Below are positions 19,129 through 48,199 of a DNA stretch of 64,000 bases, piece by piece. The notes below the pieces were generated by a model that made no database searches, was not told the DNA's origin, and was given only the letters and a program-made list of their open reading frames with translations. The stretch lies in the sequence record MT446416.1; one strand, given 5' to 3'. The number at the start of each line of letters is the position of its first letter. The stretch's first letter is position 1. The translations under genes were made by a program, and so were the position numbers. This DNA is from Escherichia virus TH47.

Positions 19129-20568
19129 TTACATATTTTCTTCTGCAAATTCTGCTAGTGGTGAACGAACGACACCTTCTAGTTCGATTACACGACAGCC
19201 GTCCCAGTTTTTAAATTTCTCAACAACATATGTTAAGCCGCTGTTAACTGGGCTAATGAATTTACTATCAATCTGTGCCAAGTTTCCAAGAATAATCACT
19301 TTGCAGTTCATGCCAGCACGAGTAAGGATTGTCTTAGCCTGAGCAGGTGTGATGTTCTGAAACTCATCCACAACCAGAATGGTGTTGGTAAATGAACGAC
19401 CGCGAATGAAGTTCAATGCTTTGAACTGAATAACATTACGCTTGATTATTTCCTCAATACTACCTTGTGGTGATGCATCATCTTTATGTAAGAATTCCAA
19501 AGCATCCAATGCAGGGCCACAATGTGGTAGCATTTTTTCCATTTCAGTGCCTGGTAAGAAACCGATTTCGGCCCATTGTGAATCTTGTGGTTTTGAGAAC
19601 ATAATACGGTCGTATTTCTTCTTCTCAAGAACCAATTCAAGTGCAGTCGCAATGGTAATTAGCGTTTTACCAGTACCAGCAGAGCCTAGCAGTACTGTTA
19701 GATGAACATCAGGATCTAGAATACTGTTGATTGCTAGTGCTTGCTGAATATTCTTAGCCTTGATATCCCACACTTTAGCACGTAAAGCAACTGATTGTCC
19801 AACGTCCTGGAATACAAGAATATCTTCTGGTGTTAAAGTACCGTCGTCTTCTTCAATTGCAGATTGACCTTCGTACACAAATAGAACATCAGCATTATCA
19901 TATAGGTAATCACCGATGCAAACATTTTGTGGCATGATATGTTCAATCAAGCTTTTAGGAATGTAGTGATACAAACGGCGACCAACTTGTTCAGATTGGA
20001 TAGACACATCAGTTAGATTGCTATACACATCCCAAAAATCTAGGTCTAGGTGATGTTGACCAATGTGAATCAAATCACTATCACCAATCACGATATCATG
20101 ACGGTAATCTTGAACTTCTACCCCGTAGCTTAGAGCCTTGATACGCATGTTGATATCACGGGTAACAAGTACTGAATCAGTTGCTAATGCTACTAAAATG
20201 ATTTTATCATCTGGTACTGTGCTTTTTAGAAGAGTTTGAACTTTCTCTTCGTCGCCAGTAGTACGAATTAGTGCTTCAGCTTCTTCGCTTGTAATAACAA
20301 ACAATTTGCTTTCAGGACTCATATTAGTATGAACATCGGCAATATTAACACCAGTACTACTAATTTCTTCATGTGATGCATCAGAAAGGATTGCTTCAAT
20401 GTTACGGATTGCAACACGAGCATCACGGGAAACATCCACATTACGACTTTTGATTGAATCCAATTCTTCAAGTACTGTGAACGGTAGAATGATAGCTGCT
20501 CCATCAAAAGCAATGGTAGCATTTGGATCAGATAGTAGTACGTTTGTGTCAATTGTATATTTTTTCAT
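19129..20568 (-). CDS. phoH: PhoH-like ATPase with N-terminal PIN domain
   Basis: Walker A VLLGSAGTGKTLIT in the C-terminal half; PIN-like acidic N-terminus (IDTNVLL...). Confidence 0.8.
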   Translation of the reverse strand: MKKYTIDTNVLLSDPNATIAFDGAAIILPFTVLEELDSIKSRNVDVSRDARVAIRNIEAILSDASHEEISSTGVNIADVHTNMSPESKLFVITSEEAEALIRTTGDEEKVQTLLKSTVPDDKIILVALATDSVLVTRDINMRIKALSYGVEVQDYRHDIVIGDSDLIHIGQHHLDLDFWDVYSNLTDVSIQSEQVGRRLYHYIPKSLIEHIMPQNVCIGDYLYDNADVLFVYEGQSAIEEDDGTLTPEDILVFQDVGQSVALRAKVWDIKAKNIQQALAINSILDPDVHLTVLLGSAGTGKTLITIATALELVLEKKKYDRIMFSKPQDSQWAEIGFLPGTEMEKMLPHCGPALDALEFLHKDDASPQGSIEEIIKRNVIQFKALNFIRGRSFTNTILVVDEFQNITPAQAKTILTRAGMNCKVIILGNLAQIDSKFISPVNSGLTYVVEKFKNWDGCRVIELEGVVRSPLAEFAEENM

Positions 20569-20629: not shown

Positions 20630-20932
20630 TTACATGCTCGGTTCGTATTCAACATAACATCTTGAACCACGAGCCTTTTCCTCCCAGCATTCCTGGTAAA
20701 CTAGTTGACCAATTGATACTGGATCTCTTGATAACCCATTACGAACTTCACCAGTACTGGTTTTATAAGTAAATGAGCATTTATTTTCATTACATTGACC
20801 TAATCCCGTTACAGTCGCTGTATTGTAATGAATATTATAACGTTTAGTGTTCTCATGATATGAACTGAACCACAGAACACCTATACCTAACAGTGTTGTG
20901 CAAATAAGACTCTTGATATGTGTTGAAATCAT
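20630..20932 (-). CDS. hypothetical protein with N-terminal hydrophobic (signal or anchor) segment
   Basis: 100-aa ORF. Confidence 0.45.
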   Translation of the reverse strand: MISTHIKSLICTTLLGIGVLWFSSYHENTKRYNIHYNTATVTGLGQCNENKCSFTYKTSTGEVRNGLSRDPVSIGQLVYQECWEEKARGSRCYVEYEPSM

Positions 20933-21249
20933 AGTGCATTAAACCCATTGGTTAAGTAAGTTTCAATATTAACTTTTCCAACTGGATTACTACTATGTAC
21001 ATAGTATTTAAATGGTTCTTTAATATTATGCTCAAACATATAATCAATTAGAAATTTGGCAAAAGTGTATCCAGTTTTCTCATCTGTACTCAAGTCACCC
21101 AAGTCATGGTCAAATGAGACAAATGCTGGAATTCCATTTTTGATTACGTATTCACATGCACTTTCGTAGTCACGACACAATACCATCTCTTGGTCAGGAT
21201 AATATTTTTGATAATCGCGAATATCATCCAAGAACATTGAGTACGACAT
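20929..21249 (-). CDS. hypothetical protein
   Basis: 106-aa ORF. Confidence 0.5.
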   Translation of the reverse strand: MSYSMFLDDIRDYQKYYPDQEMVLCRDYESACEYVIKNGIPAFVSFDHDLGDLSTDEKTGYTFAKFLIDYMFEHNIKEPFKYYVHSSNPVGKVNIETYLTNGFNAL

Positions 21250-21258
21250 TTTAAACTC

Positions 21259-21810
21259 CTATAGATAGCTGATTAGTAAGTTTTCTTTTTGTACAAGATA
21301 CTCCAATTCTTGTTTCGCAGTTCCGATGAAGTTCTGTGTCATAAGATTATTATATCCTGCTTCTCGATTTTGTCCCTTAGAATAACGTGAGATGTGACAT
21401 AAATTTACACCCGCCACCTCTGCACTAGCATGTTTGCCATATGCATAATTATCACGAAGTTTTTTAAGTTCAGCATAAGTCATTTCATAACTATAGCTAT
21501 GGGTGTGTCCCTCTGGAAACAATTCAAGTGATTTTAATGGAGACAGGCGACTTTTGTCAATGATATAGTTCATTTCTTCTTGAACTTCACGCTGTAACGC
21601 ATCTTCTAATGACTTATCAGTACTTTCAACTGTTCCACCACATGCACCCAACAATCCATCCCAACGCACTTGTAGGAGTACTAAGTTAACCACTGGAATA
21701 TCATTTAGTTCATAATCAGCGTATGGGGTACATTCTTTTGCATAAAAGAAACAGAATACAAAATTTGCACGTTTCCCCATTTGCCCCAGTGGTACTTCAG
21801 CTTTACTCAT
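21259..21810 (-). CDS. Nudix-hydrolase-like protein
   Basis: GGTVE...REVQEE resembles the Nudix box (G-x5-E-x7-REUxEE) but the spacing is not canonical. Confidence 0.4.
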   Translation of the reverse strand: MSKAEVPLGQMGKRANFVFCFFYAKECTPYADYELNDIPVVNLVLLQVRWDGLLGACGGTVESTDKSLEDALQREVQEEMNYIIDKSRLSPLKSLELFPEGHTHSYSYEMTYAELKKLRDNYAYGKHASAEVAGVNLCHISRYSKGQNREAGYNNLMTQNFIGTAKQELEYLVQKENLLISYL

Positions 21811-22559
21811 CGCATTCGTTCCTTAATTATAGTTTCAACCTGTGGAATTGCTTTCGTCGCAGGTTTGATGACCTTCTCATTAAAAAGAAAATCATTATCA
21901 TTTTTTCGGATGTTCACATTTACACTATAGCATGGAAGTGCACCAGCTAGTCTGGACCATACCAGTACTGTATCACTGCTTCCAATAACTACAACTGTAT
22001 CATTTTCGGTGAGACTTTTCAACACTTCATTTCGTTCTTCATAAATGGGGAGACGTACCCCATCAACGTAGCGATGGTACTCACCAATCATCACTACATT
22101 TGGTTTTGCAAAAACATCAGCTTTAGGGATATATGGTTCATAACCACAATTAATGACATTGTAATCATCAGTATTAATAGAAAAGTTCTCAATTACTTCA
22201 CATAGATTTCCGTGTAGTTTGAGTTCGGTTCCACCAATTCTAGTATATAGATCATCCATATTAGAAGTCATGTGTAAAAAACAATCACCATACAAATCTT
22301 CTAATGATTTAATAAAGTAATGCATTTCATTAGGATGACATTCTCCTAATTTTACACGCAATGTATTATAAAATGAATGAACTACATGATACTTAGAACT
22401 AAGTCGTGCAATGTTACAAACATCATTAATTTTGAAATTGTCCCACAACCCATCATCAAAGCGGAATGGTTCCATCCCGCTCTCAACTGAAAGACCTGCC
22501 CCTGAAATTATAAGTAATCTTTTGTTCCCAGCATTTTGTATAAATTTATCTGATATCAC
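21807..22559 (-). CDS. SIR2-family (sirtuin-like) protein
   Basis: ISGAGLSVESGMEPFR near the N-terminus matches the sirtuin GAGIS-x-ESGIP-x-FR NAD-binding motif; downstream LHG. Confidence 0.65.
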   Translation of the reverse strand: MISDKFIQNAGNKRLLIISGAGLSVESGMEPFRFDDGLWDNFKINDVCNIARLSSKYHVVHSFYNTLRVKLGECHPNEMHYFIKSLEDLYGDCFLHMTSNMDDLYTRIGGTELKLHGNLCEVIENFSINTDDYNVINCGYEPYIPKADVFAKPNVVMIGEYHRYVDGVRLPIYEERNEVLKSLTENDTVVVIGSSDTVLVWSRLAGALPCYSVNVNIRKNDNDFLFNEKVIKPATKAIPQVETIIKERMR

Positions 22560-22568
22560 ATTTACTCC

Positions 22569-22769
22569 TTATATAAAAAGTATCAAGTTTAATACTAAAA
22601 ATACAATGATAGCAATATGATAGACATACATCCACTTATTGTGTCCATGTTTATTACCATTCCTGAATTCTCGGTATAAACATTTAGTGTGATTGTATAA
22701 CACCACACAAATAAACACAACTATGAAACAAAAAATCCACTCGTAAATTATGTATGCCATCAGATACAC
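22569..22769 (-). CDS. small membrane protein (two predicted TM helices)
   Basis: 66-aa hydrophobic ORF. Confidence 0.4.
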   Translation of the reverse strand: MYLMAYIIYEWIFCFIVVFICVVLYNHTKCLYREFRNGNKHGHNKWMYVYHIAIIVFLVLNLILFI

Positions 22770-22791: not shown

Positions 22792-23385
22792 TCAGTATTT
22801 CAAAATATCAAACTCTGGACTAACGCTTGTTACATTATCACTAACAATTTTGAAAATAGACTCAACACGTTCATGTAACTGAACATTGGTTTCTTCTTGA
22901 ACTTCAATATATGCTGACATGGATGCAATTGCATGATAAGTCCCACTTCCGACAGCAGTAATTTGTGTTTTAGGTTGCAGTACTGAAAAGTCTTCTTGAA
23001 CTTCATAAATTGTGTGATTATGAAGGATGATGAACTGACCACCACCAACATCTTGTGAAGCATCACGAGCACCCCATTCATCTTTGAACATTTGACGAAT
23101 GATAGGAATAACTTTCAGTACTAGATACTGCGAAAAGGTTTCTCCTGCAACTTGTTCTGGTAGAGTTAGGTTGTAATTCAACAACTGCCCCATGCGGAAC
23201 GATGTAGTGTACCCTAACGCCATTACTTCTTTTGTGCGAGTAAGACCATCCTCATTGAGTTTAATGAACTCTTTCTCAAACACTTTAGGCTCAGTTTGAA
23301 CTGCTTTAGTGAATCCATTGCTTCCTAATTTATCACCAGCGATGAAGGAAGATGTGCCATTTGTGTGAGCGATAATACAAGTCAT
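22792..23385 (-). CDS. HslV/proteasome-beta-like Ntn-hydrolase
   Basis: Start moved to the ATG at 23383-23385 (AAGGAG Shine-Dalgarno, ATGA overlap with the upstream stop), giving an N-terminal Met-Thr; ...TAVGSGTYHAIA resembles the HslV GSG segment. Confidence 0.5.
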   Translation of the reverse strand: MTCIIAHTNGTSSFIAGDKLGSNGFTKAVQTEPKVFEKEFIKLNEDGLTRTKEVMALGYTTSFRMGQLLNYNLTLPEQVAGETFSQYLVLKVIPIIRQMFKDEWGARDASQDVGGGQFIILHNHTIYEVQEDFSVLQPKTQITAVGSGTYHAIASMSAYIEVQEETNVQLHERVESIFKIVSDNVTSVSPEFDILKY

Positions 23386-23642
23386 GAAATAACTCCTTGT
23401 GCAAAAAGTGCCGTATATAACCAGTATATCAGCAACCCTAGTGTAAGTAAACATGCTCCATAAGAAATCGATAGAACATAGTAAATTCCTGCTCCGAACT
23501 TGGATGCAAATTTGTGTGTACTGGAATCCATAAAACCACGTTTGTAGTCTTTATAGATGAAACATGTTAAAACTAATGTAATGCAATATACAATAGTTGT
23601 TGCATAAAAAACAAGAGATGTTAAGTTTTGTAAATTTGTCAT
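23382..23642 (-). CDS. small membrane protein
   Basis: 86-aa ORF with hydrophobic helices. Confidence 0.45.
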   Translation of the reverse strand: MTNLQNLTSLVFYATTIVYCITLVLTCFIYKDYKRGFMDSSTHKFASKFGAGIYYVLSISYGACLLTLGLLIYWLYTALFAQGVIS

Positions 23643-23736: not shown

Positions 23737-24345
23737 CTAATGAATGATACTACCTAATTCGAACAACTGCTCTGGTGTAAGTCTTACAACTTCATCACCA
23801 CGAACTTTACTAACCTCCACTAACAATTCTGGAGGAATACCATTCGCTGCATATAACGCAAATAGAACACCAACCTTAGTTGATAGCTGTTCTGCAAAAA
23901 TAGTCATTTGGCGAACTGTTATGTATGTGTCATCACTATTTCGTGCTTTACTTTCGATTGACACATTATGTAGACCTAGAATTGAGTCCTTCATCATGTA
24001 TCTGTTTTCTATATTAGCACTAAAGAATGCGATAGTGCAAGAAGAATTACAATATCTTTCAACAATAATTGTTAAATTGTTATCATTGACAAAATTTCCT
24101 AGTGCCACTCCCGCATCAAAATCACCACCTGGTGACGTAATGATGATAGTGTCAAATGGGTGTGTTTCTCTAAAAACCATCAAACGGTTTACAGTATTTT
24201 CAGTTAAAGTTGAAATGAACTGAACTGTCTGTTTAGATTCATCATATCTAATGATACTTTTTCTTTCATCACCTGCACTTGCAGGAAAGTTAATTAAGAA
24301 AATAATAATAATAGATTGGATGATTTCTTTACATAATCGTACCAC
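23737..24345 (-). CDS. secreted ClpP/S49-superfamily protease-like protein
   Basis: N-terminal signal-peptide-like segment ending ASA; IITSPGGDFDAGVALGNFV resembles the ClpP/SppA SPGG segment. Confidence 0.45.
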   Translation of the reverse strand: MVRLCKEIIQSIIIIFLINFPASAGDERKSIIRYDESKQTVQFISTLTENTVNRLMVFRETHPFDTIIITSPGGDFDAGVALGNFVNDNNLTIIVERYCNSSCTIAFFSANIENRYMMKDSILGLHNVSIESKARNSDDTYITVRQMTIFAEQLSTKVGVLFALYAANGIPPELLVEVSKVRGDEVVRLTPEQLFELGSIIH

Positions 24346-29624: not shown

Positions 29625-30482
29625 TTATTTTATTCTTACCCCACCCCAATTCTCATATATTTCAATGATTTTGTCAATGTCTAAAGGTGATGTGGTTTCG
29701 GTATATCCGTCTTTCATTTCACGAGCATCAAGTACATGTGAAAAAGTTCTTTTACATTCAGCTTCTGCTGATTTACATAACGTGACCGATTCAAACTCCC
29801 ATACGCCACAATTATTAACATCATAGATGGAATGTTTATTTTGGGATTTTTCTCTGGTTGTATAATTATTGGCAATACCATATTTTAATGCAATAGGAAC
29901 CCCACTGTCAAGTACTAAATTTATGTAACATTGTTGTTGGTTGTTTCCATTACATGAACACGACACTTTACCACTTTTGAGATTACCCTGTTGACATTCA
30001 CATACATCTCCACATACTGGACATTTATAAAACCAAAATATCGGATGTCCATGATTATTCAAACGCTTAGATCTCCAAAACTTTGTACATGGATGGTATT
30101 TGCCAGTACTAAGAAAATCGTTTATATGAATATTATCATCAAACAATCTACTCTGGCCTATTCTTTCATTACCACAATCATTACATGCTTTGTCATGAAA
30201 CAGTAAATTGTCAATAGATGTTGTATTCCAGTATCCATGTTTTTTGCAATGCATTTTTAAATGCACCAACCCTTTTTGACGCACGGAATCCCATGAATCG
30301 TAAAAACCAAGGAAAGTATATCCTAACTGATTGCATTTTTCATAAACTTTCATCGTATATTGATATTTTGTCTTTTTAGATGAATTTGAACAATCACATC
30401 CTATTTTACCTTTTGAAATATTACTTTTCATTGATGCAAATATTCCAGTTCCGTGACATTTTAGGATTTTGTTTACATACAT
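29625..30482 (-). CDS. Cys-rich zinc-ribbon protein with C-terminal T5orf172-like (GIY-YIG-related) domain; putative nuclease
   Basis: Multiple CxxC pairs; C-terminus ...ALKYGIANN...DGYTET resembles the T5orf172 domain; start uncertain (ATG at 30482 or 30431); overlaps the 30421-30705 ORF. Confidence 0.4.
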   Translation of the reverse strand: MYVNKILKCHGTGIFASMKSNISKGKIGCDCSNSSKKTKYQYTMKVYEKCNQLGYTFLGFYDSWDSVRQKGLVHLKMHCKKHGYWNTTSIDNLLFHDKACNDCGNERIGQSRLFDDNIHINDFLSTGKYHPCTKFWRSKRLNNHGHPIFWFYKCPVCGDVCECQQGNLKSGKVSCSCNGNNQQQCYINLVLDSGVPIALKYGIANNYTTREKSQNKHSIYDVNNCGVWEFESVTLCKSAEAECKRTFSHVLDAREMKDGYTETTSPLDIDKIIEIYENWGGVRIK

Positions 30483-30705
30483 CACATTGTTCAAAATACA
30501 TCTTAGTATAACCACCGACACCGGTTCTGACGAAACCAATTATAGAATCGTGGTTTGAACAATACTCATCAGTTTCAAGATTATTAATATCAAAATTTTT
30601 GGGAAGCCATTTGTATTTTTCTTCCCAAATTTTATATGATATTAATAATGGATCTCCGCTATTATATAAATTGAAATAATCCGTTATTTCTTTATCAATT
30701 TTCAT
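30421..30705 (-). CDS. hypothetical protein (possibly the frameshifted N-terminal part of the downstream Cys-rich gene)
   Basis: 94-aa ORF overlapping the next ORF by 62 nt in another frame. Confidence 0.35.
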   Translation of the reverse strand: MKIDKEITDYFNLYNSGDPLLISYKIWEEKYKWLPKNFDINNLETDEYCSNHDSIIGFVRTGVGGYTKMYFEQCDVCKQNPKMSRNWNICINEK

Positions 30706-36326: not shown

Positions 36327-37067
36327 TCATTCTCTCCACTTTTGACCACGTTGCCAATCTGGATCATTCAAACGTGGGTCATTTTCATTTTGTGTATTAG
36401 TAACTTTACCACTTTTATGAACTAACCAAATTCGTTTTGACGCGACCGAAGAATATTTTTGTTTTTGAACATCAGTTCTCTTTTTACCAGTGTTTGATTT
36501 CTTTATATTGTTGGACCATGATGTTTTTTCTTCATCTGTCATTTTATATGTACAGGGTTTACCATGCATAGGATTTTTATCTCCAGGGAAACAACCTTTC
36601 ATCCTCTGACTCATTTGAATACGTGTTTCTTCTGATACAGATTTACCTTTATTCCAAGCCACAACACCTGAAGAATATCGCTTCTTTTGTGCCGTTGATA
36701 TTTGTTTTTTCCAATTTTCTTTATCAATTACGCCGTAGCCACCTTCTCCACCACGTTTGATGTTATATGTGTCGCTTCTTTGTATAAATTGTTCATTAAC
36801 AATTTCTCTTTCTTTGTTATACATTTCTTCTTTATTATCAAAAATATAAAGTATTTCTTTATTGAATTTTTCAATTCCATATTTCTTAATGGATTTCTTT
36901 ATCAGAACACCTGAACCCATATATTCATCATTTATGTCATCAGTCATATGAGCACCAATATAAATTTTATTATTAATTAAATTGGTTATTTTATATATAA
37001 TATAATAGTGCATATAGAAAGTCCTTTTTGTCATATATGCACTATTTATTTTATCAAAAACGTCCAA
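36327..37067 (-). CDS. free-standing GIY-YIG homing endonuclease (Seg-like)
   Basis: YYIIYKITNLINNKIYIGAH...YMGSG GIY-YIG motif; repeated basic DNA-binding-like modules in the C-terminal half; contains no AGTACT. Confidence 0.7.
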   Translation of the reverse strand: MDVFDKINSAYMTKRTFYMHYYIIYKITNLINNKIYIGAHMTDDINDEYMGSGVLIKKSIKKYGIEKFNKEILYIFDNKEEMYNKEREIVNEQFIQRSDTYNIKRGGEGGYGVIDKENWKKQISTAQKKRYSSGVVAWNKGKSVSEETRIQMSQRMKGCFPGDKNPMHGKPCTYKMTDEEKTSWSNNIKKSNTGKKRTDVQKQKYSSVASKRIWLVHKSGKVTNTQNENDPRLNDPDWQRGQKWRE

Positions 37068-37986
37068 AATCTACTTGAAATACCTTCAAACCAAGTAGCT
37101 TACGCCACATGAACGTCACGGCTTCGCGGTCATCATATACCTTTTTAACATCGTATTGATTAACCACATTTTTCATGTACAGGTCGAATTTAACAACATC
37201 ATCAGGACGTTTATCATCGATGCCTCGCATAAACAATGCATCGTAAGGAACACCCCAATTCTTAAGCCACTGTTCGGTGTCAGTACGACACCCTTCAGTA
37301 CGCCCACTCATGACGATAATCTTGCGTTTATGAAAAACTGCTTCTGCGATAATAGACAAAATAACTTCTTCGTCTGGTGTATCCTGGAGTACAGTACTTT
37401 CATCGAACGGGTTACGGCCCCATTTATGAGCAAGAGTTCCATCGATATCAACGATGATAGCAGCTTCGCGTGAATTACCATAGTAACCAATGTGTAATGC
37501 CTTACTATAATAGTACGTATCTGCCATTGTGTCAATGATATTATCTTGTACTGAACGCTCACGCTGGAGGTTATATTTCTTACAAAGTTTTACGAACTCT
37601 TTAATCTTAAAGAATTCATGAACATCTGCACCACGGTCTTCATTAGGTACAAAATCATCATAGAAGTTCTTTTCTTTGTAATCATAACCATTATCTTTAG
37701 CCCACATTTTCCATTGATCACGGAAATGTGGTTTAAGGTTCGTATCGGATACGATGATATTCCAACTATTCTCCGCTGCTGAATTTGCTGCACTGAACTG
37801 TAAATTAGTTACGTACTTCTCATTAGCATCATTGAATTTGTAAGCATCATGTGACCCAGCCATAGATTCACGAATATCATCACGGTTGATGTTGATAGTC
37901 TTGGATTTGGCTTTTTTAATCTCTTGCACTGCCCATGTAGTTTTACCACACCCAGGCAATCCAACTGTTAGTGTGATAGTTGGCAT
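37054..37986 (-). CDS. pseT: polynucleotide 5'-kinase / 3'-phosphatase
   Basis: N-terminal P-loop GLPGCGKTT and NINRDD; C-terminal HAD motif IVDIDGTL; 310 aa, same architecture as T4 Pnk. Confidence 0.85.
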   Translation of the reverse strand: MPTITLTVGLPGCGKTTWAVQEIKKAKSKTININRDDIRESMAGSHDAYKFNDANEKYVTNLQFSAANSAAENSWNIIVSDTNLKPHFRDQWKMWAKDNGYDYKEKNFYDDFVPNEDRGADVHEFFKIKEFVKLCKKYNLQRERSVQDNIIDTMADTYYYSKALHIGYYGNSREAAIIVDIDGTLAHKWGRNPFDESTVLQDTPDEEVILSIIAEAVFHKRKIIVMSGRTEGCRTDTEQWLKNWGVPYDALFMRGIDDKRPDDVVKFDLYMKNVVNQYDVKKVYDDREAVTFMWRKLLGLKVFQVDFGRF

Positions 37987-38808: not shown

Positions 38809-39951
38809 CTAAAAATCCTTTAGTACAATTTTCATGTACTTAATAAGAGTCTCTTTGTAATCGACTTTCTTATTGTTGTACATTGCAAAGGCCAAGCCCT
38901 GACGATTCAGTTCATTAGTTAAACACTCCTGAACCTTCTTAGCGAATTCCTTTCGCTCCAAGTGCTTGTGTTCCTTGACGAAGCTTTCAACTTCATCTTG
39001 TAAAGCATTATAGCACGAAAAGACTAGTTGTTCCATTCTTAATATCTTTTGAGTAGCATATTCGTCAGTACTGAACAACTGTTTTAAATCATCACTCGAA
39101 CCATTTAATACAGCTTCATATAAATGGGAATCGAATATAATACTGTCTTTCGTTAAATGCAAAGAACAATACCAGTCGGTTTTGATTTTGCACATTGTAC
39201 CATTATTTAGGATGCACACAAAACCTTCAATGTCAAGCATTTTCTTAACTTCTTCAACACTTTCTTTGAATGTAGTACGAACAGGGAAAGTGTAATGAAT
39301 ATCTTTACCTGTCATATTAGTACTGTACTGTGCAAGGCATGGAAACTTATTACGTAATGCAGAACCACATAATAGTTCACCACTCTTGCGATGGCGAACG
39401 TTTAGTACAAATAATTGTTCAACCTGGTATGGTAATACAATTCGGTACTCTGGACTTGTATACTCCAGATTAACAGTATAGCCCAAACGGTCTGCTTCGT
39501 CAATGTATTGATACAAATTTTGGTTCTCGGTGAGAAGACGAGTGCTGTTAATCGCATGGTCTGAATACAATGCAGTATGTGATTTACAACGAATCTCACC
39601 ATCATTATCACGGTAAGTACTGATCACTGAACCATCCAACTTAGGCATCACTACCGCAATGTCATCGCAGGTGGTATCAGCAGGGAACATTGTAGCAGGA
39701 TTCTCGTAAGCATTGAAGAACTTTTTCATAGTACGAGCAGCACAACGAATCATATTACCTTCTTCATCAATTTCCCACATAGATCCACGGGTTTCTAATG
39801 CATTGGGTTGCATGAAATCAGTATATGATGCTAGACGATAACTGAATACACGATACGTTCCACCAGCAGGACTTTTATGATCCACATAAAAGAAAGCCTC
39901 ACGGGTATTACATAAGTGCATTAAATCTTCATATATTTGTAAAAGGGTCAT
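38809..39951 (-). CDS. rnlA: RNA ligase 1 (T4 gp63-like)
   Basis: Adenylation motif MPKLDGSV; extended similarity to T4 Rnl1 as I recall it (FFY...SYRLASY...RG..WE, KIKTDWY.SLH, GSSDDLK). Confidence 0.9.
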   Translation of the reverse strand: MTLLQIYEDLMHLCNTREAFFYVDHKSPAGGTYRVFSYRLASYTDFMQPNALETRGSMWEIDEEGNMIRCAARTMKKFFNAYENPATMFPADTTCDDIAVVMPKLDGSVISTYRDNDGEIRCKSHTALYSDHAINSTRLLTENQNLYQYIDEADRLGYTVNLEYTSPEYRIVLPYQVEQLFVLNVRHRKSGELLCGSALRNKFPCLAQYSTNMTGKDIHYTFPVRTTFKESVEEVKKMLDIEGFVCILNNGTMCKIKTDWYCSLHLTKDSIIFDSHLYEAVLNGSSDDLKQLFSTDEYATQKILRMEQLVFSCYNALQDEVESFVKEHKHLERKEFAKKVQECLTNELNRQGLAFAMYNNKKVDYKETLIKYMKIVLKDF

Positions 39952-47665: not shown

Positions 47666-48199
47666 TTATTTCCTCATGTATTTTATTACATCTTCAAATA
47701 GTTTAGTTTTCAGTGCATCATCATTACCAGGTAGAAAAGTACTGAAGCTATTAAAATCTTCATTCTTGGCAAACTCACGCATCTGTGTGGAACTGTAGCG
47801 ACTTACATTTCGGTCAATTCCAGCTTGAACTGCCTTGATTGAACAAAAATTATATAACTTCCCATTGTACGTGTCAAGCGTTTTTTGGAATGGTTCAAGT
47901 CTGTCTGAACCACATATGAAAAGAACATCTAAGTACTTTCCATCCAGTTCTCTCATTATATCAAACAGATTATCTTCTGTATAGATATTTTCTTGTACAG
48001 ATGGGTAAAATCCTTCTGTATAGTACATTTTCAGTTCAGGAGGTAATGGGTTTTTGACGGCATCAGTACTGGTACTAAGGAATATTTTCAAATCAGCATT
48101 GTACTGTTCTTGTAGTGCTTGGGCTTTTTCAAACACTAAACCATGTCCATTGTGGACTGGGTTACATCTCATGAATGTCACTACGCATGTTTCTTTCAT
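47666..48199 (-). CDS. HxGH-motif nucleotidyltransferase (cytidylyltransferase-like fold; possible NMN/NaMN adenylyltransferase)
   Basis: FMRCNPVHNGH near the N-terminus matches the (H/T)xGH signature; downstream SSTQMR resembles the ISSTxxR motif. Confidence 0.5.
   Translation of the reverse strand: MKETCVVTFMRCNPVHNGHGLVFEKAQALQEQYNADLKIFLSTSTDAVKNPLPPELKMYYTEGFYPSVQENIYTEDNLFDIMRELDGKYLDVLFICGSDRLEPFQKTLDTYNGKLYNFCSIKAVQAGIDRNVSRYSSTQMREFAKNEDFNSFSTFLPGNDDALKTKLFEDVIKYMRK

Follow-up and report, generated by a model that had tools for sequence, protein, structure and literature searches.

The window analysed here, a stretch of 64,000 nucleotides from Escherichia virus TH47 (sequence record MT446416.1), carries on its minus strand, at positions 21807–22559, an open reading frame (ORF) that encodes a genuine full-length SIR2-family protein (sirtuin) of 250 residues. 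The protein has the nicotinamide adenine dinucleotide (NAD+) site and catalytic His of the family together with a remodelled small domain that lacks the zinc site, and it is probably an active NAD-using enzyme, as judged from the residues it retains. Its gene heads a tight operon that also encodes a Nudix hydrolase, a cREC domain protein (a predicted cyclic-phosphate-processing receiver domain), a small membrane protein and a PIN-PhoH fusion. We tentatively propose that the sirtuin, the Nudix hydrolase and the cREC protein may form an NAD+-using unit for which RNA phosphate ends would be the likeliest acceptor, and we slightly favour this reading over one in which the sirtuin is a protein lysine deacylase. 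The sirtuin gene, its clade, the loss of the zinc site and the gene neighbourhood have all been described previously; the gene is already annotated in GenBank, has a PHROG of its own and has been treated in three papers, and there is nothing new in it as a sequence finding. We found no experimental work on phage sirtuins in the literature, and the remaining question, that of the sirtuin substrate, is a biochemical one.

The SIR2-family protein and its orthologs

Translation of the sirtuin starts at a GTG codon (position 22559), five nucleotides after an AAGGAG Shine-Dalgarno sequence (22565–22570, minus strand) that overlaps the stop codon of a preceding 66-residue ORF. A preliminary description of the window, made from the DNA letters alone, had placed the protein in the SIR2 family, and Pfam, PHROG, the CobB structures and a predicted model all agree with that assignment. 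The Pfam SIR2 profile (PF02146) is matched with an E-value of 1.3e-19 and 71.3 bits (cut-off 24) over profile positions 1–178 of 180, and PHROG 2162, "Sir2 (NAD-dependent deacetylase)", with an E-value of 7.9e-74; SIR2 is the only Pfam family found in the protein at E-values up to 1. The closest solved structures by sequence are those of Escherichia coli CobB (E about 2e-21, sirtuin residues 13–244). What had been picked out as a GAG-LSVESG-MEPFR sirtuin signature reads SGAGLSVESGMEPFRF at residues 19–34, with the GAG at residues 20–22, and the NAD-binding motif GAGxS...G(I/M)PxFR is present as SGAGLSVESGMEPFR (residues 19–33). The similarity greatly exceeds what chance would give; it is not limited to a generic Rossmann segment and takes in the whole sirtuin domain, including the catalytic His.

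An AlphaFold2 model computed from an alignment of 23 sequences has a mean predicted local distance difference test (pLDDT) score of 91.6, and only the cofactor-binding loop (residues 31–40) is uncertain. In a Foldseek search of the PDB with this model, CobB was the top match (E 2e-16, TM-score 0.76–0.84, 28% identity), followed by Sir2Af1/2, SIRT5, PfSir2A and Sir2Tm; the model and these matches show that the two-domain sirtuin fold is present, and the best 50 matches listed are all sirtuins of the deacylase type. The protein scores far below the cut-offs of the two CobB equivalogs in NCBIfam (NF001755 and NF040867; 89.3 bits against 318 and 84.7 against 320), and it has no match among the PADLOC defence models at E-values up to 0.1. 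The protein is thus a CobB-like sirtuin (class III/U-like) and neither a CobB equivalog nor a defence-type SIR2 protein.

The framing of the gene in terms of anti-phage SIR2 effectors, as given in the preliminary description, is therefore not borne out. The defence SIR2 NADases (ThsA, DSR1/2, SIR2-HerA and SPARSA) have the SIR2 Rossmann core in common with the TH47 sirtuin, and the zinc ribbon is missing in both. They are associated with a sensor or partner (SLOG, HerA, pAgo, or large N- or C-terminal domains), whereas the phage sirtuin is a single-domain protein of 250 residues with Nudix, cREC and PIN-PhoH neighbours. None of them is among the best 50 structural matches listed.

The 4 kb around the sirtuin gene are 98% identical in DNA sequence to the Escherichia jumbo phages vB_Ec-M-J, WPEC5, Ecwhy_1 (genus Asteriusvirus), fEgEco12 and others, and 78% identical to the PBECO4 group. 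The window itself derives from an E. coli jumbo phage of the genus Asteriusvirus. Orthologs in related jumbo-phage records are annotated as "Sir2", "Sir2-like protein" or "NAD-dependent protein deacylase", and a protein identical to the TH47 sirtuin is also found in public assemblies (P0001). The Ecwhy_1 ortholog, QAY00582.1, carries the annotation "Sir2-like" and was given as an example of a jumbo-phage SIR2 protein by Iyer et al. in 2021 (PMC7824862). A sirtuin on a phage genome is not unusual, contrary to the earlier suggestion: among 50,697 GenBank phage records, 968 contain a relative of this one, chiefly in phages of Escherichia, Salmonella and Klebsiella, and these relatives are routinely annotated Sir2. 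The family is present in about 2% of sequenced phages, including T5-like phages (similar sirtuins are seen in their GenBank records), rV5-like phages and jumbo phages.

Active site, zinc site and the virus-restricted clade

The family alignment shows no variation at G20, G22, S27, N100, D102, H116, K152-P153 and G159-E160, and F32-R33 and GSS 193–195 are retained by most members. H116 is the catalytic His of the HG motif. E. coli CobB (PDB 1S5P and 6RXJ), a class III lysine deacylase, shares with the phage protein the GAG, FR, N, D, catalytic His and GE elements as well as the equivalent of Tyr92. Of the two features that the preliminary description had singled out for checking, the catalytic His is thus present and the four zinc-binding Cys residues are absent. 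In place of the four-Cys zinc ribbon the sirtuin has C120 and C138, neither of which is conserved, and the small domain is modelled with pLDDT above 90 despite this loss. The Gln of the TQNxD motif is replaced by Ser in the sirtuin (TSN) and by Ser, Thr or Ala across the clade.

Further differences from CobB lie around the acyl-lysine site. CobB Y92 and R95 act in desuccinylation; this Y-x-x-R acyl-carboxylate motif is incomplete in the sirtuin, which retains the Tyr as Y64 and has Leu (L67) at the Arg position, with an invariant Arg (R68) one position further on. The sequence FYNKRR is retained in the clade subgroup of 36–40% identity. CobB A76 corresponds to C48, which is nearly invariant in the clade, F190 to I158, and V219-Y220-P221 to V198-L199-V200, so that Val occupies the P221 position. 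In CobB, F190 and P221 belong to the acetyl-lysine tunnel (PMC5107563).

The clade was delimited by comparing 58 distinct sirtuins from viral contigs, in which the loss of the zinc Cys residues and the replacement of the TQN Gln go together: at most two Cys residues occur in the small domain of all but one of the 44 T[S/T/A]N sequences, and 13 of the 14 with TQN have four or more. Among 185,579 species genomes, the closest bacterial and archaeal relatives are at most 35% identical and have TQN and four Cys residues. The lone exception among relatives in bacterial genomes (L073) lies on a contig of phage appearance in a metagenome-assembled genome. At an E-value of 1e-30 or better only nine matches were found among 1.84 billion representative proteins. 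Because the cellular relatives are so distant and keep the zinc Cys residues, and because close matches are so few, the zinc-less sirtuins form a clade that is narrow and essentially restricted to viruses. A further candidate marker of the clade, absence of the VxP loop, was considered and rejected, as there are also zinc-containing relatives without this loop. The family is acidic, with isoelectric points (pI) of 4.7–5.9.

The absence of zinc from phage sirtuins was already noted for KVP40-like Vibrio phages by Skliros et al. in 2016 (PMC5107563). The Sir2/CobB proteins of the Vibrio phages KVP40, phiSt2 and phiGrn1 are likewise zinc-less, keep the catalytic His and are associated with phage NAD+ salvage; they differ from the TH47 sirtuin in being only about 30% identical to it and in having another gene neighbourhood. 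They are reported to have an INP version of the VYP motif (PMC5107563). As a separate observation, a few jumbo-phage sirtuins (L008 7001–7732, P0011 and P0014) carry GNG at the GAG position and no longer have the FR motif (PYH or LYD instead); their catalytic His is retained and their NAD binding may be degenerate.

The sirtuin operon and a possible role at RNA ends

All genes around the sirtuin lie on the minus strand. The gene immediately downstream, at 21259–21810, had been described as Nudix-like and linked to the sirtuin, correctly on both counts: its ATG overlaps the sirtuin stop codon by four nucleotides (ATGA), and its 183-residue product matches PF22327 (E 1e-18) and, over the whole domain, the NUDT16/X29 structures in the PDB (E about 4e-11), with an intact catalytic REVQEE motif. 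By type it is an RNA-decapping NUDT16/X29 enzyme, not an ADP-ribose pyrophosphatase. What had been missed in the neighbourhood was the cREC gene, the PIN-PhoH gene and the RNA-repair context. The cREC gene (20929–21249; 106 residues; PF20274, E 1.9e-23; nothing found in a PDB sequence search) follows after a gap of nine nucleotides, and its stop codon is overlapped by four nucleotides by a gene for a conserved 100-residue predicted membrane protein with a hydrophobic N-terminal segment (20630–20932; PHROG 14661, "membrane protein"). The last conserved gene of the block (19129–20568) encodes a 479-residue fusion of a PIN_4 RNase domain and a PhoH ATPase, recognised by both Pfam and PHROG. This close packing, an ATGA overlap, a nine-nucleotide gap and a second four-nucleotide overlap, is a signal of co-expression.

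Related jumbo-phage loci were compared whose sirtuins are 46–90% identical to that of the window. The order sirtuin, Nudix, cREC, protein of about 100 residues, PIN-PhoH is kept in every one of the 11 loci that have a downstream flank. Upstream of the sirtuin, within 1–6 kb, NAMPT is encoded in 11 of 12 loci and NMNAT-Nudix in 10 of 12, and an Acb1-like 2H phosphoesterase gene lies just upstream in 8 of 12. This differs from the window and from the PBECO4-like locus L006, where none of the three is found nearby. The sirtuin of Serratia phage BF (AQW88637.1) is 44% identical over 250 residues (E 2e-77), and the gene that follows it encodes a single 302-residue Nudix-cREC fusion, whereas Nudix and cREC are separate genes in the window; an Acb1-like 2H phosphoesterase is encoded two genes upstream. 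Iyer et al. 2022 (PMC9503650, section 3.7.3) use AQW88637.1 as the exemplar of neighbourhood type 1 in their RNA-repair sirtuin clade. The TH47 sirtuin is orthologous to AQW88637.1 and has the Nudix, cREC and PIN-PhoH neighbours in common with that clade, but the 2H phosphoesterase linked to it there is not in the window.

RNA-repair and NAD-salvage genes recur near sirtuins in other phage lineages. At least 12 loci on contigs of about 90–155 kb (many of about 135–150 kb) have a sirtuin, 26–40% identical to that of the window, immediately behind the genes for an Rnl1-type RNA ligase and an AAA_33 kinase, and one of these loci also has NadR and PnuC; in size and context they fit the phage V5/Mydo type of Iyer et al. 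2022. Phages of about 110 kb, T5-like to judge by size, encode an RNA-repair HAD_SAK_2 phosphatase one gene downstream of the sirtuin and NrdD upstream of it, and in two further loci NAMPT is directly upstream. In related RaK2-like jumbo phages (L002 1645–4828; L003 811–5991; L004 497–6059; L145 1259–5174), NMNAT-Nudix, NAMPT and an Acb1-family 2H gene precede the sirtuin, in some of them with Lar restriction alleviation downstream of PhoH as well, and the region resembles a counter-defence and NAD island.

In the scheme that we tentatively favour, the sirtuin, the NUDT16-like Nudix enzyme and cREC would be co-expressed and would work as one NAD+-using unit. An oxygen nucleophile of the substrate would attack C1'' of NAD+ and nicotinamide would leave, after which His116 would activate the ribose 2''-OH for a second step. 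The cREC protein would open the cyclic phosphate formed, and the Nudix enzyme would cleave the pyrophosphate of the ADP-ribose-linked product. The acceptor would be a phosphorylated RNA end, which would either lose a 2'-phosphate, as with Tpt1/KptA, or become ADP-ribosylated at a terminal phosphate, and the setting may be the repair of RNAs cut by host nucleases. In sirtuins and Tpt1 alike, a substrate oxygen attacks C1'' of NAD+ and attack by the ribose 2''-OH then gives a 1'',2''-cyclic species; the chemistry of the scheme is plausible because these established mechanisms share the steps. Tpt1/KptA, the RNA 2'-phosphotransferase, would be a functional analogue by virtue of this hypothetical likeness in chemistry; its fold is unrelated to that of sirtuins and the sequences are not similar. 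On the basis of genome context, Iyer et al. 2022 put forward RNA 2'-phosphates as the substrate of a Tpt1/KptA-like reaction; in their model 2H, cREC, Nudix and related enzymes resolve cyclic phosphates and process ADP-ribose cyclic phosphate (PMC9503650). TRPT1 ADP-ribosylates RNA ends, and human NUDT16 undoes this modification (PMC6582358).

Several of the observations above point towards RNA ends: the intact catalytic core in a confident CobB-like fold, the close gene packing, the fusion in phage BF together with the RNA-decapping type of the Nudix enzyme, the RNA-repair neighbours in independent lineages, and the departure of the clade from deacylases near the active site (T[S/T/A]N, no zinc site, Leu for R95, P221 not kept). 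What counts in the context evidence is translational coupling, the Nudix-cREC fusion and the recurrence in independent lineages, and conserved order says little by itself: it argues only weakly for a functional link because the jumbo-phage loci are close syntenic relatives.

That weakness is one of several points that count against a role at RNA ends. To our knowledge there is no sirtuin with demonstrated activity on RNA, and the nearest relatives that have been characterised are all protein lysine deacylases. Tpt1 enzymes are basic and RNA-binding, unlike the acidic phage family. The window encodes a T4-type polynucleotide kinase-phosphatase (AAA_33 and HAD_PNKP; 37054–37986, minus strand) and a T4 Rnl1-type RNA ligase (38809–39951, minus strand); the phage thus has the classical tRNA repair pair 15–17 kb from the sirtuin, a pathway that leaves no 2'-phosphate. 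The function of cREC is itself only predicted. The NAMPT, NMNAT-Nudix, Acb1-like 2H, NadR and PnuC proteins of the relatives, used as tblastn queries, found no counterpart in the window, the rest of the genome of about 355–380 kb being unsearched; the missing 2H gene in particular speaks against the scheme. No Asteriusvirus record is among the best 40 NAMPT matches listed, which is not conclusive. In five more phage lineages (L014, L023, L031, L033 and L049), 9 of 10 neighbouring proteins had no match in a Pfam scan.

A broader form of the proposal, which we consider rather unlikely, is that the phage clade represents the first nucleic-acid-acting enzyme of the sirtuin fold, a convergent replacement of Tpt1/KptA at RNA-end phosphates, with cREC and Nudix dismantling the ADP-ribose cyclic-phosphate product and the NAMPT/NMNAT salvage of the relatives recycling it. 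A role at RNA ends, if true, would extend sirtuin chemistry from acyl-lysine to nucleic-acid phosphates, and would define a new phage module for RNA repair and NAD recycling with a bearing on phage survival in the face of host ribonuclease defences.

Both activities suggested in the preliminary description for an enzyme acting on host proteins, deacylase and ADP-ribosyltransferase, are possible. The first has a real, if less than even, chance of being correct: a CobB-like protein lysine deacylase would act on host or phage proteins such as acetyl-CoA synthetase and retune metabolism, and the Nudix enzyme would clear O-acyl-ADP-ribose. E. coli CobB, Sir2Af1/2 and SIRT5 are the top matches in sequence or structure, the full set of residues for the chemistry is present (H116, N100, D102, F32 and Y64), the acidic pI suits a protein substrate, and the pairing with NAMPT in relatives fits the recycling of nicotinamide; sirtuin action on RNA, by comparison, is without precedent. 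Skliros et al. 2016 proposed such a role for the zinc-less Vibrio phage sirtuins, with host enzymes such as acetyl-CoA synthetase as targets (PMC5107563). On the other hand, the score is far under every CobB equivalog cut-off in NCBIfam (89 bits against 318), and there is no conservation of the TQN Gln, of the zinc site or of the equivalents of R95 and of the tunnel residue P221. Because deacylation yields no cyclic phosphate, it would leave both the cREC partner and its fusion to Nudix unexplained, and the Nudix enzyme is of the RNA-decapping type. Should the protein be a deacylase, it would exemplify the rewriting of a host acylome by a phage.

An ADP-ribosyltransferase of the sirtuin fold, comparable to T4 Alt/ModA/ModB, that would serve takeover by modifying host proteins or nucleic acids and whose mark the Nudix enzyme would trim or reverse, seems improbable. 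Some sirtuins do ADP-ribosylate proteins (PMC9503650), and NUDT16 cleaves both protein- and RNA-linked ADP-ribose (PMC6582358). However, the flanking genes scanned include no Macro domain, the typical partner of the known ADP-ribosylating sirtuins (SirTM type), the catalytic His typical of deacylases is kept, and nothing points to a specific target.

Still less probable is a counter-defence module in which the sirtuin, Nudix and cREC proteins would break down or redirect immune signals derived from NAD, or toxic derivatives of ADP-ribose, that host defences make. Acb1 has been validated as a nuclease that counters CBASS, and NAMPT with NMNAT-Nudix as the NARP2 pathway. The block in relatives is flanked by an Acb1-family 2H gene, by NAMPT and NMNAT-Nudix and by Lar restriction alleviation, and cyclic ADP-ribose derivatives could plausibly be degraded by Nudix and cREC (PMC7824862). 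The argument is one of guilt by association alone; no role of sirtuins in degrading such signals is known, and the tblastn search found no Acb1-like, NAMPT or NMNAT gene in the window. Depletion of NAD+ is used by host defences to abort phage infection. Host shutoff by an NADase that drains the cell of NAD+, which the preliminary description had also raised, is very unlikely, even though SIR2 domains can be NADases (PMC9503650) and KVP40 Sir2 was first described as hydrolysing NAD+ (PMC5107563), because in related phages NAD+ synthesis by NAMPT and NMNAT-Nudix is encoded only a few kb before the sirtuin, and because the protein does not resemble the defence SIR2 NADase models.

Other genes in the window

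A tRNA scan of the window found no tRNA genes. Just upstream of the sirtuin are two protease-like genes on the minus strand (22792–23454 and 23737–24345), one of them HslV-family-like (PHROG 1040) and the other ClpP-like and called "head maturation protease" in relatives. An ORF at 36327–37067 (minus strand), which immediately precedes the polynucleotide kinase gene, gives weak GIY-YIG (SegE-like) and NUMOD3 matches, below the Pfam thresholds, and may be a homing endonuclease.

A 304-residue ORF with a CapR homology domain (29625–30539, minus strand) lies between the metallophosphoesterase and ATP-dependent DNA ligase genes. It looks like an insertion, possibly of a mobile endonuclease-type gene, because these two flanking genes adjoin in the otherwise collinear phage WPEC5. 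In WPEC5 itself (L001, 11253–13334; about the same coordinates as in the window), the anaerobic ribonucleotide reductase large subunit, NrdD, has two separately annotated parts on either side of a small ORF, which suggests an interrupted or frameshifted nrdD gene.

The preliminary description had also mentioned an HxGH nucleotidyltransferase at 47666–48199 (minus strand). The motif is there: the 177-residue ORF has H-N-G-H followed by SSTQMR, as in nucleotidyltransferases of the HIGH superfamily (NMNAT- or cytidylyltransferase-like). It lies 25 kb from the sirtuin, and no connection between the two was found. The ORF has no Pfam or PDB sequence match and matches PHROG 3041/395, "cytidyltransferase"; the gene after it is DNA methyltransferase-like.

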